From: Escherichia coli
GTDB taxonomy: Bacteria; Pseudomonadota; Gammaproteobacteria; Enterobacterales; Enterobacteriaceae
Length of the DNA: 64,000 nucleotides
Assembly (NCBI RefSeq): GCF_001677475.2
Contig: NZ_CP015229.1
Reading direction: 5' to 3' (one strand)
Part shown: positions 4,265 through 10,589 of the stretch, in pieces
Layout: each line of letters begins with the position of its first letter
Numbering within the stretch: position 1 is the first letter of the stretch
Made by a program: the position numbers and the translations under genes
The notes under the pieces: generated by a model
Told to the model about the DNA's origin: nothing
The model's input: only the letters and a program-made list of their open reading frames with translations
The model's database searches: none

Positions 4265-5914
4265 ATGAAAAACATCAATCCAACGCAGACCGCTGCCTGG
4301 CAGGCACTACAGAAACACTTCGATGAAATGAAAGACGTTACGATCGCCGATCTTTTTGCTAAAGACGGCGATCGTTTTTCTAAGTTCTCCGCAACATTCG
4401 ACGATCAGATGCTGGTGGATTACTCCAAAAACCGCATCACTGAAGAGACGCTGGCGAAATTACAGGATCTGGCGAAAGAGTGCGATCTGGCGGGCGCGAT
4501 TAAGTCGATGTTCTCTGGCGAGAAGATCAACCGCACTGAAAACCGCGCCGTGCTGCACGTAGCGCTGCGTAATCGTAGCAATACCCCGATTCTGGTTGAT
4601 GGCAAAGACGTAATGCCAGAAGTCAACGCGGTGCTGGAGAAGATGAAAACCTTCTCGGAAGCGATTATTTCCGGTGAGTGGAAAGGTTATACCGGCAAAG
4701 CAATCACTGACGTAGTGAACATCGGGATCGGCGGTTCTGACCTCGGCCCATACATGGTGACCGAAGCACTGCGTCCGTACAAAAATCACCTGAACATGCA
4801 CTTTGTTTCTAACGTCGATGGCACCCACATCGCGGAAGTGCTGAAAAAAGTAAACCCGGAAACCACGCTGTTCCTGGTAGCATCTAAAACCTTCACCACT
4901 CAGGAAACCATGACCAACGCCCATAGTGCGCGTGACTGGTTCCTGAAAGCGGCAGGTGATGAAAAACACGTTGCGAAACATTTTGCGGCGCTCTCCACCA
5001 ATGCCAAAGCCGTTGGCGAGTTTGGTATTGATACTGCCAACATGTTCGAGTTCTGGGACTGGGTCGGCGGCCGTTACTCTTTGTGGTCAGCGATTGGCCT
5101 GTCGATTGTTCTCTCCATCGGCTTTGATAACTTCGTTGAACTGCTTTCTGGCGCACACGCGATGGACAAGCATTTCTCCACCACGCCTGCCGAGAAAAAC
5201 CTGCCTGTCCTGCTGGCGCTGATTGGCATCTGGTACAACAATTTCTTTGGCGCGGAAACTGAAGCGATTCTGCCGTATGACCAGTATATGCACCGTTTCG
5301 CGGCGTACTTCCAGCAGGGCAATATGGAGTCTAATGGTAAGTATGTTGACCGTAACGGTAACGTCGTGGATTACCAGACTGGTCCGATTATCTGGGGTGA
5401 ACCAGGTACTAACGGTCAGCACGCGTTCTACCAGCTGATCCACCAGGGAACTAAAATGGTACCGTGCGATTTCATCGCCCCGGCTATCACCCATAACCCG
5501 CTCTCTGATCACCACCAGAAACTGCTGTCTAACTTCTTTGCTCAGACCGAAGCGCTGGCGTTTGGTAAATCCCGCGAAGTGGTTGAGCAGGAATATCGCG
5601 ATCAGGGTAAAGATCCGGCAACGCTTGACTATGTAGTGCCGTTTAAAGTGTTCGAAGGTAACCGCCCGACCAACTCCATCCTGCTGCGCGAAATCACCCC
5701 GTTCAGCCTGGGGGCGTTGATTGCGCTGTATGAGCACAAAATCTTTACTCAGGGCGTGATCCTGAACATCTTCACCTTCGACCAGTGGGGCGTTGAGCTG
5801 GGTAAACAGCTGGCGAACCGTATTCTGCCGGAACTGAAAGATGACAAAGAAATCAGCAGCCACGATAGCTCGACCAATGGTCTGATTAACCGCTATAAAG
5901 CGTGGCGCGGTTAA
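4265..5914 (+). CDS. pgi: Glucose-6-phosphate isomerase
   Basis: 549 aa starting [24 protein letters not shown]; the ORF track's start at 4259 is a TTG two codons upstream. Confidence 0.95.
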
Positions 5915-5933
5915 TTTAAAAACCTTAATAACA

Positions 5934-5961
5934 ATGCCGACGTTATGTCGGCATTTTTTTA
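5934..5961 (+). terminator. Rho-independent terminator of pgi
   Basis: Hairpin atgccgacgttatgtcggcat followed by a T7 run. Confidence 0.8.
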
Positions 5962-6108
5962 TCAGATAAATCCCCTTGTCTGTGATTTAACGGAAATCAT
6001 ACCGTGAGGTTAATCCTAAAATAGATTTTTAATCGTTGTTTATTTCGGAAAATACGCAGATTAATTACTTTTGTTTTTATTTTAAGTTTATGATTTTTAT
6101 TGTTATTT

Positions 6109-6132
6109 AAATATAAGTTGAAACTTATATTT
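6109..6132. promoter_or_regulatory. Perfect dyad in the AT-rich yjbE upstream region (candidate operator)
   Basis: aaatataagtt-ga-aacttatattt, 11-bp perfect inverted arms, about 140 bp upstream of yjbE. Confidence 0.35.
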
Positions 6133-6268
6133 GATATTCATTCCAATTATCCTAAAACGCCATCGCTAATTCCCCGCGCCGTAATTCGCATGCTTTAGTT
6201 GTGTATACTCGATCCCGCCCGAAATGTTTTTGGGTAAATCTCCATTCATTCAATGAAGGGAAATTGTT

Positions 6269-6511
6269 ATGAAAAAAGTTCTGTATGGCATTTTTGCCAT
6301 ATCTGCGCTTGCGGCGACTTCTGCGTGGGCTGCACCTGTACAGGTGGGCGAAGCGGCAGGGTCGGCAGCAACGTCGGTTTCGGCGGGTAGTTCCTCCGCG
6401 ACCAGCGTCAGCACCGTAAGCTCGGCGGTGGGTGTCGCGCTCGCGGCAACCGGTGGCGGTGATGGTTCTAATACCGGGACCACAACAACCACAACCACCA
6501 GTACCCAGTAA
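6269..6511 (+). CDS. yjbE: Secreted Ser/Thr/Ala/Gly-rich low-complexity protein YjbE
   Basis: 80 aa with signal peptide (ALAATSAWA) and a Thr7 run; first gene of the yjbEFGH cluster. Confidence 0.75.
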
Positions 6512-6697
6512 TAAAGTATGTATCCCCAAAATAATTCGAGTTGCAGGAAGGCGACAAGCGAGTGAGTCCCCGGGAGCATAGATAACTATGTGACCGGGGT
6601 GAACGAGTGCGGTCACCGCATCTGCAGCTTGAAGTATGAAGGGGATTAACCATAACCACACTCCGGTGTGGTTATTCTGCCCCTCTGGAGAAGAGTC

Positions 6698-7333
6698 GTG
6701 AAGCGACCTGCACTCATTCTTATCTGTCTGCTATTACAGGCCTGTTCAGCCACGACTAAAGAGCTGGGCAATTCACTGTGGGACAGTCTGTTCGGCACGC
6801 CAGGCGTACAGCTGACGGATGATGATATTCAAAATATGCCCTACGCCAGCCAGTACATGCAGCTTAATGGCGGGCCGCAATTGTTTGTGGTGCTGGCCTT
6901 CGCTGAAGACGGACAACAAAAATGGGTCACTCAGGATCAGGCCACTCTCGTCACACAACATGGTCGTCTGGTGAAGACTTTGCTTGGTGGCGACAACCTG
7001 ATTGAAGTGAATAACCTTGCCACTGACCCGCTGATTAAACCCGCACAAATTGTTGATGGTGCAACATGGACGCGCACGATGGGCTGGACCGAGTACCAGC
7101 AGGTACGCTACGCCACCGCACGCTCAGTCTTCAAATGGGATGGCACCGATACCGTCAAAGTCGGCAGCGATGAAACCCCGGTTCGCGTGCTGGACGAAGA
7201 AGTCTCCACCGACCAGGCGCGCTGGCATAACCGCTATTGGATCGACAGCGAAGGGCAAATTCGCCAGTCGGAACAGTATCTCGGCGCGGATTATTTCCCG
7301 GTGAAAACCACTCTCATCAAGGCGGCAAAATAA
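6698..7333 (+). CDS. yjbF: Lipoprotein YjbF
   Basis: GTG start gives MKRPALILICLLLQAC with lipobox LQAC; RBS ggagaagag. The track ORF starts 10 codons upstream at 6668. Confidence 0.8.
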   Translation: MKRPALILICLLLQACSATTKELGNSLWDSLFGTPGVQLTDDDIQNMPYASQYMQLNGGPQLFVVLAFAEDGQQKWVTQDQATLVTQHGRLVKTLLGGDNLIEVNNLATDPLIKPAQIVDGATWTRTMGWTEYQQVRYATARSVFKWDGTDTVKVGSDETPVRVLDEEVSTDQARWHNRYWIDSEGQIRQSEQYLGADYFPVKTTLIKAAK

Positions 7334-8070
7334 TGATTAAACAAACTATTGTCGCGTTGCTTTTGAGTGTGGGAGCGTCATCGGTCTTCGCGGCAGGAAC
7401 CGTCAAGGTGTTCAGCAATGGCAGCAGTGAGGCCAAAACGCTAACGGGCGCAGAGCATTTAATCGATCTGGTAGGCCAACCGCGGCTGGCAAACAGCTGG
7501 TGGCCTGGTGCGGTGATTAGCGAAGAGCTGGCAACGGCGGCAGCATTGCGTCAGCAGCAGGCGTTGCTGACACGGCTGGCAGAACAGGGCGCAGATTCCA
7601 GCGCCGACGATGCCGCTGCGATTAACGCCTTACGCCAGCAAATTCAGGCGTTGAAAGTGACGGGCAGGCAAAAAATCAATTTTGATCCCGATATCGTCCG
7701 CGTTGCCGAACGCGGTAACCCGCCGTTGCAGGGCAACTACACGCTGTGGGTCGGACCACCGCCGTCCACGGTCACGCTGTTCGGGCTTATCAGCCGTCCT
7801 GGCAAGCAGTCATTCACTCCAGGTCGCGACGTGGCGAGCTATCTCTCTGACCAGAGCCTGCTCAGCGGTGCGGATCGCAGCTACGCATGGGTGGTTTACC
7901 CGGACGGACGCACGCAAAAAGCGCCGGTGGCTTACTGGAACAAGCGTCACGTAGAGCCGATGCCCGGCAGCATTATTTATGTTGGCCTCGCGGACTCCGT
8001 CTGGAGTGAGACGCCTGATGCCCTTAACGCCGACATTCTTCAGACTCTGACGCAGCGGATACCTCAATAA
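7333..8070 (+). CDS. yjbG: Periplasmic protein YjbG
   Basis: [20 protein letters not shown] signal peptide; ATG overlaps the yjbF stop (taATGa), indicating translational coupling. Confidence 0.8.
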
Positions 8071-10166
8071 TGAAAAAAAGACATCTGCTTAGCTTACTGG
8101 CGCTGGGCATTAGCACAGCTTGCTACGGCGAAACATATCCTGCGCCCATTGGTCCGTCGCAGTCGGATTTCGGTGGCGTAGGATTATTACAAACGCCCAC
8201 CGCGCGCATGGCGCGGGAAGGGGAGTTAAGCCTGAACTATCGAGATAACGATCAGTACCGTTATTACTCAGCTTCAGTGCAACTCTTCCCGTGGCTGGAA
8301 ACAACGCTGCGTTACACCGACGTGCGCACCCGGCAGTACAGCAGCGTCGAAGCGTTCTCTGGCGATCAAACGTATAAAGATAAAGCCTTCGATCTCAAAC
8401 TGCGTTTGTGGGAAGAGAGTTATTGGCTGCCGCAAGTGGCGGTTGGTGCGCGGGATATCGGCGGTACGGGGCTGTTTGATGCGGAATATCTTGTTGCCAG
8501 CAAAGCCTGGGGGCCGTTCGATTTTACACTCGGCCTGGGCTGGGGATATCTGGGCACCAGCGGTAACGTGAAAAATCCGCTCTGTTCAGCCAGTGATAAA
8601 TATTGCTATCGCGATAACAGCTACAAACAGGCGGGATCTATCGACGGTAGCCAGATGTTCCACGGTCCTGCCTCACTGTTTGGCGGCGTGGAATACCAGA
8701 CATCCTGGCAGCCGCTGCGCCTGAAACTGGAGTATGAAGGCAATAATTATCAGCAGGATTTTGCCGGGAAGCTGGAGCAAAAAAGTAAGTTTAACGTCGG
8801 GGCGATTTATCGCGTTACCGATTGGGCCGACGTTAACCTTAGCTATGAACGTGGCAACACCTTTATGTTTGGCGTCACGCTGCGCACCAACTTTAACGAT
8901 CTGCGCCCTTCTTACAACGATAACGCCCGCCCGCAATATCAACCGCAGCCGCAGGATGCCATTTTGCAGCATTCGGTGGTGGCGAATCAGTTAACGCTGT
9001 TGAAATACAATGCCGGACTTGCCGATCCGCAGATCCAGGCGAAAGGCGATACGCTGTATGTTACCGGCGAGCAGGTGAAATATCGTGATTCGCGTGAAGG
9101 GATCATCCGTGCTAATCGGATCGTGATGAACGATCTGCCGGATGGGATCAAAACGATCCGCATTACGGAAAACCGCCTTAACATGCCGCAGGTGACGACG
9201 GAAACCGATGTCGCCAGCCTGAAAAATCATCTCGCCGGAGAGCCGTTGGGCCACGAAACGACGCTGGCGCAAAAACGCGTCGAGCCAGTGGTTCCGAAGT
9301 CCACCGAGCAGGGCTGGTATATCGACAAATCACGCTATGATTTCCATATCGATCCGGTGCTGAACCAGTCGGTCGGTGGCCCGGAAAACTTTTACATGTA
9401 TCAGCTGGGCGTGATGGGAACGGCAGATTTGTGGCTGACGGACCATCTGCTGACCACCGGCAGCCTGTTTGCAAATCTTGCCAACAACTACGACAAGTTT
9501 AACTACACCAATCCGCCGCAGGACTCGCACTTACCGCGCGTTCGTACCCATGTGCGCGAGTATGTGCAGAACGATGTCTATGTGAATAACCTGCAAGCCA
9601 ACTACTTCCAGCATCTGGGCAACGGCTTCTACGGTCAGGTCTATGGAGGTTATCTCGAAACCATGTTTGGCGGTGCGGGGGCAGAAGTGTTGTATCGTCC
9701 GCTGGACAGCAACTGGGCGTTTGGTCTGGATGCCAACTACGTTAAACAGCGCGACTGGCGTAGTGCAAAAGATATGATGAAATTCACCGACTACAGCGTG
9801 AAAACCGGACATCTGACCGCCTACTGGACGCCATCTTTCGCTCAGGATGTGTTAGTGAAAGCCAGCGTCGGGCAGTATCTGGCAGGGGATAAAGGCGGCA
9901 CGCTGGAGATCGCTAAACGCTTTGACAGCGGCGTGGTGGTTGGCGGCTATGCCACGATCACCAACGTTTCGAAAGAGGAGTACGGCGAAGGGGACTTCAC
10001 CAAAGGCGTGTATGTCTCTGTACCGTTGGATCTCTTCTCGTCTGGCCCGACACGCAGCCGTGCGGCGATTGGCTGGACGCCGCTGACGCATGACGGTGGT
10101 CAGCAACTTGGGCGTAAGTTCCAGTTGTATGATATGACCAGCGACCGTAGCGTCAATTTCCGCTAA
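8070..10166 (+). CDS. yjbH: Outer-membrane beta-barrel-like protein YjbH
   Basis: 698 aa; ATG overlaps the yjbG stop; signal peptide with lipobox-like STAC; C-terminal F (NFR) typical of outer-membrane proteins. Confidence 0.8.
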
Positions 10167-10212
10167 GTCATGGGAAAGGTGCCAGTTTTCGCAATCACTG
10201 GCACCCTCATTC

Positions 10213-10461
10213 TTAATGGCCTGTTGAGCCATCAGGAACGCAGTTCACCCCCGGTTTGCGATCTGGTGTGTAAAGGCGAAAACATTCTGTCTTCCTGTCC
10301 GTCGATATCGGTTGCAGGTCTGGTTGCCTGAGCGACTGGGCCATCATTGGGCTGGAGACATTGCTTTGCGGTAGGTCGGCTTTATCAGCAGTACCGAACG
10401 GACCAGCATAAGCAGGAAGAACAGAGACTGATAACATCAAAGCAGCAAAATAAGGCTTCAT
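10213..10461 (-). CDS. yjbT: Small secreted protein YjbT
   Basis: MKPYFAALMLSVSVLPAYAG signal peptide preceded by aggtgg RBS; an alternative start 10 codons upstream (10491) has a poor RBS. Confidence 0.6.
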   Translation of the reverse strand: MKPYFAALMLSVSVLPAYAGPFGTADKADLPQSNVSSPMMAQSLRQPDLQPISTDRKTECFRLYTPDRKPGVNCVPDGSTGH

Positions 10462-10589
10462 TTTTACCACCTTTATCAGGTTACGTTTCATTTGTTCCAG
10501 AGGAACATTGTCGATTTTTCGCGCATTGCTGGTGGCTGGGAATCACCTGAATGGGTGATTTTTGCAGTACAGGCTATGGTGCGGTTTGT

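Follow-up and report, generated by a model that had tools for sequence, protein, structure and literature searches.

The yjbEFGH operon of Escherichia coli is a known Rcs-regulated exopolysaccharide operon and a paralogue of gfcABCD, and the region analysed here is this operon. Several of its features are already in print, namely the operon itself, its Ser/Thr-rich first gene, the gene overlaps with a suggested translational coupling, a point made by Larson et al. 2021 (PMC8592465), and the idea of glycosylation. Regulation by Rcs is likewise taken from the literature. The YjbH protein has a double-barrel architecture (PMC9603273), and YjbE and GfcA were termed 'entirely uncharacterized' in 2024. 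At the transcript level, PMC8208086, citing Ferrieres 2007, reports yjbE mRNA in excess of yjbFGH mRNA. In a Salmonella lptG variant yjbE alone of the operon was significantly up, and in K-12 all four genes were co-induced, with equal fold changes of yjbE and yjbF. Such an equality of fold change is compatible with equal as well as with unequal absolute levels. Intercistronic stem-loops set the stoichiometry of gene expression in further operons such as papBA and malEFG. No entry for yjbE was found in two published 3'-end/operon data sets.

The window, a stretch of 64,000 nucleotides of E. coli DNA, carries the gene order pgi-yjbEFGH-yjbT, and its features are collected in Table 1. The four co-oriented genes matched the Pfam families PF11106, PF11102, PF20616 plus PF06251, and PF06082 in that order, and the yjbEFGH annotation is identical in K-12. 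The products of yjbF and yjbG matched the structures of YmcC/GfcB (PDB 2IN5, E 3.8e-43) and GfcC (PDB 3P42, E 6.4e-54), respectively. Searches with the YjbE and YjbF proteins yielded only fragments, frameshifted variants and close orthologues and did not reach distant families. The GTG at 6698, preceded by GGAG, is the conserved start of yjbF, as GTG was found at every locus where the position is held, with TTG as the single exception. The in-frame GTG at 6668, which would make the conserved hairpin described below coding, was rejected as the start, since neither frame nor length of this stretch is conserved and REP-like insertions break into it. Upstream of yjbE the ops/JUMPstart motif GGCGGTAG was not found, nor was an RcsAB box within 3 mismatches of a consensus near yjbE. 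Judged from its sequence and fold, the hairpin beyond yjbH is the probable end of the operon, facing the convergent yjbT.

Table 1. Features of the yjbEFGH locus, in positions of the window.
Feature	Position	Strand	Evidence or sequence
yjbE CDS	6269..6511	+	ORF list; PF11106; yjbE annotation in K-12 and further genomes
Thr7 run, residues 71-77	6479..6499	+	ACC ACA ACA ACC ACA ACC ACC
Full-length ERIC/IRU repeat, 127 nt, imperfect palindrome, co-transcribed, between yjbE and yjbF	6520..6646	+	Fold, multi-copy, primer match
72-nt ERIC core absent from K-12, EC958 and E. whittamii	6540..6611	+	Alignment
Hairpin of the earlier note, GUGACCG...CGGUCAC	6590..6616	+	Alternative local stem within the ERIC
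Conserved intercistronic hairpin	6652..6675	+	10-bp stem AUAACCACAC/GUGUGGUUAU, UCCG (UNCG-type) loop, then UCUGCC
yjbF ribosome-binding region	6687..6700	+	GGAG 6687-6690, spacer 7 nt, GTG start 6698
yjbF CDS, GfcB-like lipoprotein, lipobox LQAC	6698..7333	+	PF11102; PDB 2IN5
yjbG CDS, GfcC-like periplasmic protein	7333..8070	+	PF20616 + PF06251; PDB 3P42
yjbH CDS, GfcD-like outer-membrane beta-barrel protein	8070..10166	+	PF06082, 889.5 bits
GC-rich 9-bp hairpin 3' of yjbH, GGUGCCAGU...ACUGGCACC	10178..10205	.	Fold

An earlier note on this DNA had placed a hairpin at about 6588-6617 and suggested that it sets the stoichiometry of YjbE against the downstream proteins. A 7-bp stem between the two genes can indeed form (6590-6596 with 6610-6616), which speaks for a dedicated attenuator that sets YjbE against YjbFGH, but it is weak (dG -13.3, z -1.45), 15 of 200 shuffles fold equally well, and it is missing from both the MFE and the centroid fold of the intergenic region. 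Instead, the segment 6520-6646 folds as one long imperfect palindrome with a dG of -63.8 and a z of -8.15, which none of 200 shuffles equalled. This segment aligns with the pgk-fbaA intergenic copy of a repeat also found at other loci, with a median of 4 megablast places per E. coli genome, and the ERIC1R and ERIC2 primers each agree with its core at 18 of 22 positions, adjacent and in the correct orientation. Across it, V_AS5, Ysr49, isrH and CssrA appeared as sub-threshold Rfam matches. With coverage of 80% or more of a probe across the ERIC core as the measure, the full copy at this locus was present in only 373 of the 5,426 complete E. coli genomes. When two short-form E. coli, K-12 and EC958, were aligned, both lacked the same internal 72 nt and with them one arm of the 6590-6616 stem; E. 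whittamii has lost this arm as well. In a spread sample, 27 of 29 entries at the locus covered 87-88% in two pieces, and most E. coli entries were 72-73 nt shorter. Internal deletions of this kind are said to have been described for ERICs by Wilson and Sharp in 2006. The insertion as a whole is missing from 65 other species that retain the operon, where the spacer is 60-65 nt long, and outside Escherichia an ERIC at the same TA site was found in one Citrobacter only (L032). By reading of the sequences, the empty spacers have the form ...TTTAAyyaTAACC in these 65 species and the filled sites of Escherichia and the Citrobacter the form G-TA-TCCCC...GGGGAT-TA-ACC, as for an insertion at TA that carries terminal inverted repeats.

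The ERIC is a lineage-specific insertion that is internally deleted in most E. coli, and the 6588-6617 hairpin is an internal suboptimal stem of it and no dedicated regulator. Because most strains do not have this stem, the attenuator proposal is for the most part refuted, and we consider it extremely improbable. The stem of the earlier note stands as a possible local fold, while its role as a setter of stoichiometry is not supported, the stem being internal to a repeat and short of one arm in K-12 and EC958. This check keeps a mobile repeat from passing as a regulatory hairpin. The repeat itself might act in another way, where it is carried at full length, by making the mRNA segment on its 5' or its 3' side more or less stable, and the ratio of yjbE to yjbFGH would then differ between full-length, short and ERIC-less lineages. 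The great stability of the palindrome in the transcribed orientation, its beginning just 8 nt past the yjbE stop codon and the natural three-state polymorphism are in line with such a modifier. As PMC2229807 summarises De Gregorio 2005, Yersinia ERICs are reported to alter mRNA stability in an orientation-dependent manner, with the ribosome exposing an RNase E site, and this provides a precedent. However, most E. coli have lost the core, which suggests that it is dispensable, and we regard an effect of this kind as possible but rather doubtful. The three natural alleles (none, truncated and full) could help to show how an ERIC affects operon polarity; CFSAN004176 and O145:H28 RM13514 are examples of strains with the full ERIC, K-12 has the short form and Salmonella has none.

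Comparison of the spacers across species indicates that the 60-65-nt spacer is the ancestral state and that a second hairpin, at 6652-6675, is the ancestral element. This hairpin lies 12 nt upstream of the yjbF Shine-Dalgarno sequence and is present in the computed folds of the intergenic region. Alignment over 65 species revealed 23 of its 24 columns to be invariant, with a mean pairwise identity of 0.993, against 0.61 and 0.76 for its flanks and 0.74 for the first 60 nt of yjbF. Among 63 sequences nine stem pairs are without any variation, so that covariation lends the structure no support. The sole variable position is position 2 of the loop, which may be U, C, A or G, as expected for a UNCG RNA tetraloop, and the asymmetry of the conserved U-CG indicates that the constraint on the hairpin is strand-specific. 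It is single-copy in 5,420 of 5,426 E. coli genomes and in 120 of 120 metagenome contigs it is confined to the yjbE-yjbF spacer. In lineage L092, with a YjbF just 46% identical, it is retained together with a U7 tract. The feature of the spacer that is truly under selection is this single-copy, genus-spanning, sequence-invariant UNCG hairpin, and it is a likelier candidate than the 6588-6617 stem for the site of control between yjbE and the genes for export. The general idea of a yjbE-yjbF hairpin that sets the ratio fits the 6652-6675 structure and the reported mRNA excess, while it fails at 6588-6617.

In other species the stem is followed by UUUU(G/C). In E. coli the full stem has UCUGCC behind it, and if a 6-bp core is taken as the stem the tail reads UUAUUCUG, a poor U tract. 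The terminator scan did not call the hairpin, and with a d'Aubenton-Carafa-type formula its score was negative in every register, compared with +11.5 for the pgi terminator. No Rfam family was found over 6652-6675. We propose that the hairpin is a leaky terminator or a 3' stabiliser, which would explain the reported excess of yjbE mRNA. In the proposed mechanism, a short yjbE transcript would end at the hairpin or have its 3' end protected by it, a fraction of transcription would read through it into yjbFGH, and the yjbE message would thereby exceed the yjbFGH message. Taken jointly, we find it likely that the locus is best explained as the known yjbEFGH operon with a constrained YjbE, coupled F, G and H genes, an ERIC insertion, and the ancestral hairpin as a leaky terminator or 3' protector.

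A plain terminator is not expected to be invariant in sequence, and something more specific may therefore be involved. A protein or sRNA could recognise the conserved hairpin as a sequence-specific RNA site and so regulate either the translation of yjbF or read-through into yjbFGH. A stem that stays invariant even where YjbF has diverged to 46% identity, its position 12 nt from the yjbF Shine-Dalgarno sequence and its weak terminator score all agree with this. On the other hand, no candidate partner and no Rfam family was identified for the hairpin, and in 118-nt variants of the spacer REP-like insertions lie between hairpin and Shine-Dalgarno sequence, which opposes a fixed geometry between the two; we judge such a site to be unlikely. 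The palindrome at 6653-6674 might also act as double-stranded DNA, as the operator of a dimeric regulator or as part of an internal yjbFGH promoter. It is a perfect and unvarying 9+9 inverted repeat without compensatory changes, and such invariance is commoner for protein-DNA sites than for terminators. However, the central 4 nt are kept asymmetrically as U-N-C-G with position 2 free, the signature of an RNA tetraloop, a T-rich tract comes after it on no strand but the coding one, and our scan of the + strand from 5850 to 10500 called no sigma-70-like promoter, making action as DNA very unlikely. The leaky terminator or 3' stabiliser remains the reading that we prefer for the hairpin.

YjbE is a protein of 80 amino acids with a Sec-type signal peptide (residues 1-21, AWA|A) followed by a mature peptide of 59 residues starting with APVQ. 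Ser, Thr, Gly and Ala account for 76% of the mature peptide, or 88% when Val is counted, and the full-length match to PF11106 (113.6 bits against a cut-off of 27.9) covers residues 1-79 of the 79 profile positions. The AF2 model has a mean pLDDT of 48 with no confident fold, and no PDB relative of YjbE was found. The description of YjbE in the earlier note as a signal peptide plus low-complexity repeats with a Thr7 run agrees with this composition, the model and the PDB search, although the C-terminus quoted there lacked the final Q. In spite of its low complexity, YjbE has an almost invariant length of 80-83 residues among orthologues, and the Thr run is exactly 7 in 78 of 83. At most of the Thr7 positions all four Thr codons are in use among 73 species, indicating that the constraint acts on the YjbE protein. 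As judged from this codon usage, the sequence of YjbE, with its exact Thr7 tail, is strongly constrained at the protein level. Retention of exactly seven threonines despite synonymous codon change indicates that YjbE is a specific peptide rather than a variable mucin-like spacer; it is precisely conserved and not a generic low-complexity sequence.

The earlier note likened YjbE to a glycosylation substrate, and the Ser/Thr richness of the protein, together with its signal peptide, could make it an O-glycosylated carrier whose Ser/Thr tract bears O-antigen or another glycan and which is exported by YjbFGH. Glycosylation has already been suggested in print for GfcA (Larson et al. 2021, PMC8592465), which has the same layout and a similar tail, ...GDGGSHNTSTTTSTTR, the resemblance of the two proteins resting on a MAFFT alignment of biased sequences. 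Nevertheless, no glycosyltransferase or oligosaccharyltransferase domain was found in the operon, whose four products match the YjbE, YjbF, GfcC and YjbH families only, and typical mucin-like glycosylation tracts are variable, unlike the near-invariant length and Thr7 run of YjbE. A carrier role for YjbE is accordingly quite unlikely. Such a transferase might also come from outside the operon. A different combination would join the invariant UNCG hairpin, as a sequence-specific RNA switch read by a protein or sRNA and metering read-through from a strongly expressed yjbE into yjbFGH, to a YjbE that is no glycan carrier but an unfolded substrate or plug of a FapF-like N-terminal barrel of YjbH. 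We put this forward as speculative and give it a low probability; if true, the invariant hairpin and the invariant YjbE tail would be two halves of an unrecognised dosage device.

Downstream of the spacer, the stop and start codons overlap by 1 nt in TAATG at both the yjbF/yjbG (7331-7335) and the yjbG/yjbH (8068-8072) junction, as the earlier note had stated. The exact yjbF/yjbG junction of the window had no match in 5,426 complete E. coli genomes. K-12 and CFSAN004176 have CAA in place of TAA, which gives a 4-nt ATGA overlap and a YjbF of 212 residues, and YjbF has 211 residues in the window because of this private CAA>TAA change at 7331. Overlaps of 1 or 4 nt were found at about 71 of 79 F-G and about 68 of 78 G-H junctions in a set of 80 species of Enterobacteriaceae, and the gfc operon has overlaps of 4 nt (gfcB-C) and 1 nt (gfcC-D). 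The near-universal overlaps in the family and their presence in gfc make the claimed translational coupling plausible, and we conclude that they probably couple translation of the three genes. Coupling of this kind would hold F, G and H in fixed proportion.

The locus shares features with several described systems. As in thr-type leader-peptide attenuators, a run of Thr codons stands shortly before a terminator-like hairpin, and the Thr codons of the window contain AACCACA, a sequence that also occurs in the hairpin 5' arm. Attenuation by a Thr-codon leader peptide was rejected, as the alternative pairing through AACCACA is not conserved among 73 species because the Thr codons vary synonymously. 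In addition, YjbE differs from a leader peptide in being a conserved secreted protein of 80 residues, and the spacing between yjbE and the hairpin, 21 nt otherwise, is about 140 nt where the ERIC is inserted. Like other ERIC/IRU repeats (Sharples & Lloyd 1990; Hulton et al. 1991), the repeat between yjbE and yjbF is a multi-copy imperfect palindrome of 127 nt; it stands between genes of one transcription unit and has TA at either junction. Nothing essential distinguishes it from copies such as that of pgk-fbaA, and the yjbE-yjbF copy is an ordinary one.

Similar to intercistronic stem-loops such as that of the R. cellulolyticum cip-cel operon (PMC10311766), the conserved hairpin is a stable structure right after a highly needed first gene, with the machinery genes next, and in both cases the upstream mRNA segment is reported at a higher level. 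The yjbE-yjbF hairpin differs in being invariant in sequence across genera with no covariation, and it would act by termination or by protection from 3' exonucleases. The closest relative is gfcABCD (ymcDCBA), a part of the group 4 capsule operon of E. coli, which has the same gene order and families: a first gene for a small Thr-rich protein with a signal peptide is followed by GfcB/YjbF, GfcC/YjbG and GfcD/YjbH. The gfcA-gfcB spacer also contains a GC-rich hairpin and then U-rich sequence, although this hairpin is unrelated in sequence to the yjbE-yjbF one, and yjbEFGH has no adjacent wza/wzb/wzc paralogues. GfcA differs from YjbE in its length of 101 residues and its longer hydrophobic core; it had no Pfam match, PF11106 included, and BLAST of YjbE against GfcA found no significant similarity. 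Together, the hairpin and the conserved YjbE provide concrete handles on the role of the first gene in operons of the gfcABCD/yjbEFGH type.

The gene order at about 4.2-12.7 kb is pgi, yjbE, yjbF, yjbG, yjbH, yjbT (minus strand), psiE and xylE, in agreement with the annotated K-12 locus and with all but one of the 5,426 complete E. coli genomes. All four products matched their families far above the cut-offs: YjbE to PF11106, YjbF to PF11102 (YjbF/GfcB), YjbG to PF20616 and PF06251 (GfcC N- and C-terminal domains) and YjbH to PF06082 (YjbH). Solved paralogue structures correspond to YjbF (2IN5, YmcC/GfcB) and YjbG (3P42, GfcC). The system is already known: yjbEFGH is described in the literature as an Rcs-induced operon required for an exopolysaccharide other than colanic acid, and as a paralogue of gfcABCD, part of the group 4 capsule operon. 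A GC-rich 9-bp hairpin directly 3' of yjbH, opposite the convergent yjbT, is probably a shared terminator, which the terminator scan did not call because of its 10-nt loop. The pgi-yjbE intergenic region carries a match to Rfam STnc430 (RF02053) of 77.7 bits against a gathering score of 47 (E 6.9e-12), overlapping the pgi terminator hairpin. Exact ops-like octamers GGCGGTAG occur three times in the window, with about one per strand expected by chance, and none lies close to yjbE.

Coordinates of the features at and around the yjbEFGH operon
Feature	Position in window	Detail
STnc430 match	5923-6072	minus strand
pgi terminator hairpin	5933-5955	
yjbE ORF	6269-6511	80 aa
Thr7 run of YjbE	6479-6499	residues 71-77
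ERIC/IRU repeat	6520-6646	127 nt
Segment absent from the short ERIC	6540-6611	72 nt
Stem GUGACCG/CGGUCAC	6590-6596/6610-6616	
Conserved hairpin	6652-6675	10 bp
Invariant block TAACCACAC-T[N]CG-GTGTGGTTA-TT	6653-6677	23/24 positions invariant in 65 distinct species
yjbF stop TAA; yjbG start ATG	7331-7333; 7333	
yjbG stop TAA; yjbH start ATG	8068-8070; 8070	
Probable shared terminator hairpin	10178-10205	
ops-like octamers	32327, 32848, 62343	plus strand

Between yjbE and yjbF, the earlier note had placed a hairpin at about 6588-6617 and had suggested that it could set the stoichiometry of YjbE against the downstream machinery. The stem can form (-13.3 kcal/mol, z = -1.45) and is not used in the fold of its 201-nt context, which consists of a single long imperfect palindrome (dG -63.8, z -8.15) and a second, separate hairpin. 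The palindrome, which encloses the proposed stem, is identified as an ERIC/IRU repeat and an ordinary member of that known family by its length, its alignment to the copy in the pgk-fbaA spacer, its several matching places per E. coli genome, the fit of its centre to the standard ERIC-PCR primers ERIC1R and ERIC2 (18/22 each, adjacent and correctly oriented) and sub-threshold Rfam matches. These matches, over 6520-6695, are to V_AS5 (Vibrio), Ysr49 (Yersinia), isrH (Salmonella) and CssrA (Shigella) via ERIC-like sequence, which suggests that parts of these sRNA families derive from ERICs.

A probe spanning the full ERIC was covered in just 373 of the 5,426 complete E. coli genomes, including O145:H28 strains and CFSAN004176. 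K-12, EC958 and E. whittamii lack the 72 nt that hold the 5' arm of the stem, 27 of 29 rows at the locus from a spread sample of the remaining E. coli genomes are likewise 72-73 nt shorter, and in 65 other species the spacer is 60-65 nt with no insertion. Because it is missing from most strains and species that have the operon, such a structure cannot be what sets the stoichiometry in general, and the proposed role is not supported. Citrobacter sp. Res13-Sevr-PEB04-36 (L032, 2323-2449; yjbF start codon TTG) has a full-length ERIC, 85% identical to the one in the window, inserted at the same TA of the spacer; the site would be a hot spot, unless the insertion is old and was lost on many occasions. 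The repeat begins 8 nt past the yjbE stop codon, which would bring its base within reach of a ribosome terminating there. In the strains that carry it, it could modulate mRNA stability, by analogy with co-transcribed ERICs in Yersinia, for which a review reports such an effect (PMC2229807).

The second hairpin is the conserved element of the spacer. In 65 distinct species, gathered through protein similarity and not through the motif, 23 of its 24 positions never change, and mean pairwise identity is 0.993 for the 24-nt hairpin block, 0.61 and 0.76 for the spacer 5' and 3' of it, 0.74 for the first 60 nt of yjbF and 0.85 for the last 60 nt of yjbE. Of the 5,426 E. coli genomes, 5,420 have a single copy of the hairpin, and a metagenome scan for the motif returned 120 contigs, in every one of which YjbE precedes the motif and/or YjbF follows it, encoded on the same strand. 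The nine core pairs show no variation at all, hence no covariation in the stem; only the second base of the loop differs between sequences (U 87, C 29, A 3, G 1 in the 120 contigs), and a UNCG tetraloop leaves exactly this position free. The fixed U-CG of the loop is not self-complementary, and a T-rich tract follows on the coding strand, reading UUUU(G/C) in most species, U7 in the metagenomic lineage L092 (ERZ500997 NODE-41) and UUCU in E. coli. This loop asymmetry and the tract point to an RNA hairpin rather than a DNA operator. In L092 (134-460), the identical stem with a UGCG loop and its U7 tract looks like a canonical terminator. In the window, the terminator scan did not call the conserved hairpin, and a simple terminator score was negative for it and clearly positive for the pgi terminator, from which we expect leaky termination and/or 3' protection, not strong termination. 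The invariance of the stem sequence may mean a specific partner. About a dozen Citrobacter/Enterobacter/Lelliottia species, with carriers including Pseudenterobacter (loci L006-L008, L011, L012, L026, L036, L037, L040-L042; spacers 107-122 nt), have, in place of an ERIC, an insertion of about 55 nt between the conserved hairpin and the yjbF Shine-Dalgarno, REP-like by our own reading (GTAGGCCGGGTAAGCG...CACCCGGCA); mobile-repeat insertion sites thus flank the hairpin on both sides.

YjbE proved to be, as previously described, a signal peptide followed by a low-complexity peptide with a run of seven threonines. Residues 1-21 read as a typical Sec signal peptide, in which MKK is followed by a hydrophobic core and AWA/A, and S/T/G/A make up 76% of the 59-aa mature chain, or 88% counting V. 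AlphaFold2 with the orthologue alignment gave a mean pLDDT of 48, the only helices being that of the signal and a weak one at residues 48-60, and a PDB search for relatives found no related chain. The 83 orthologues compared, drawn from about 80 Enterobacteriaceae species, are 80-83 aa long; 78 of them have a run of exactly seven threonines and the remaining five read TTTTTSTTT, and the C-terminal tail, with Q or R as last residue, is nearly invariant. Because all four Thr codons occur at most of the seven positions across species, selection acts on the protein. In L092, where YjbF is 46% and YjbE about 47% identical, the YjbE body has diverged, yet the tail is kept. Glycosylation tracts of the variable mucin-like type are usually not this tightly conserved; YjbE seems unlike them, and a specific modification would still be compatible. 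In two E. coli-like metagenome contigs (L163, about 6180-6450; L195, about 6480-6730), all that is left of yjbE is a few Thr codons at its end, preceded by unrelated sequence, whereas the short ERIC, hairpin and yjbF are intact. This looks like an insertion or deletion allele without YjbE.

The stop and start codons at both yjbF-yjbG and yjbG-yjbH overlap in the window. This is the rule across 80 species collected through YjbF similarity, with overlaps (-4 or -1) at about 71/79 and 68/78 junctions, respectively, and a 0-2 nt separation at 6 and 9. A private C>T at 7331 changes the last yjbF codon from CAA (Gln) to TAA, giving a YjbF of 211 aa and the junction TAATG; K-12 and CFSAN004176 have CAA, a YjbF of 212 aa and the 4-nt overlap ATGA. 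The TAA allele had no exact match in the 5,426 complete E. coli genomes. Overlaps of 1-4 bp, present also in homologous operons, led to a proposal of coupling (Larson et al. 2021, PMC8592465). The conserved overlaps make translational coupling of yjbF/G/H plausible, which partly supports the earlier suggestion.

We propose that transcription would start upstream of yjbE under Rcs control, and that a fraction of transcripts may stop at the UNCG hairpin or be trimmed back to it. The outcome would be a short protected yjbE mRNA, with the remainder reading through into yjbFGH, whose translation would then be linked via the overlaps. Such a scheme fits the reported excess of yjbE over yjbFGH mRNA, ascribed to stability differences (Ferrieres 2007, as cited in PMC8208086), the finding that only yjbE of the operon was significant in a Salmonella lptG variant (PMC8208086), and the joint induction of the four genes in K-12 described in the literature.

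Overall, the observation in the earlier note is confirmed in part. Its interpretation receives partial support as regards the protein and the coupling, and none as regards the specific hairpin. Only two features, the invariant hairpin and the invariant Thr7 tail, might merit experiments. The note's comparison of YjbE to a glycosylation substrate or matrix peptide parallels the published idea for GfcA, the first small protein of the gfc operon, as a protein rich in Ser/Thr that undergoes modification and leaves through the barrel protein (Larson et al. 2021, PMC8592465). The family matches of the four yjbEFGH products include no transferase, the N-terminal barrel of YjbH/GfcD is said to resemble FapF, an exporter of amyloid subunits (PMC9603273), and IS1 inserted between yjbE and yjbF is described as activating an Rcs-type phenotype. 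Together these allow a reading, to which we assign a low probability, in which YjbE itself would be unfolded and serve YjbH as substrate or partner. GfcA and YjbE can be aligned collinearly, an alignment without statistical support, through the signal, an S/T-rich stretch and an AVGVA-type hydrophobic core to the GfcA end ...GDGGSHNTSTTTSTTR. The gfc operon likewise has overlapping junctions (gfcB-gfcC by 4 nt, gfcC-gfcD by 1 nt), and its gfcA-gfcB spacer also contains a GC-rich hairpin, after which the sequence is U-rich.
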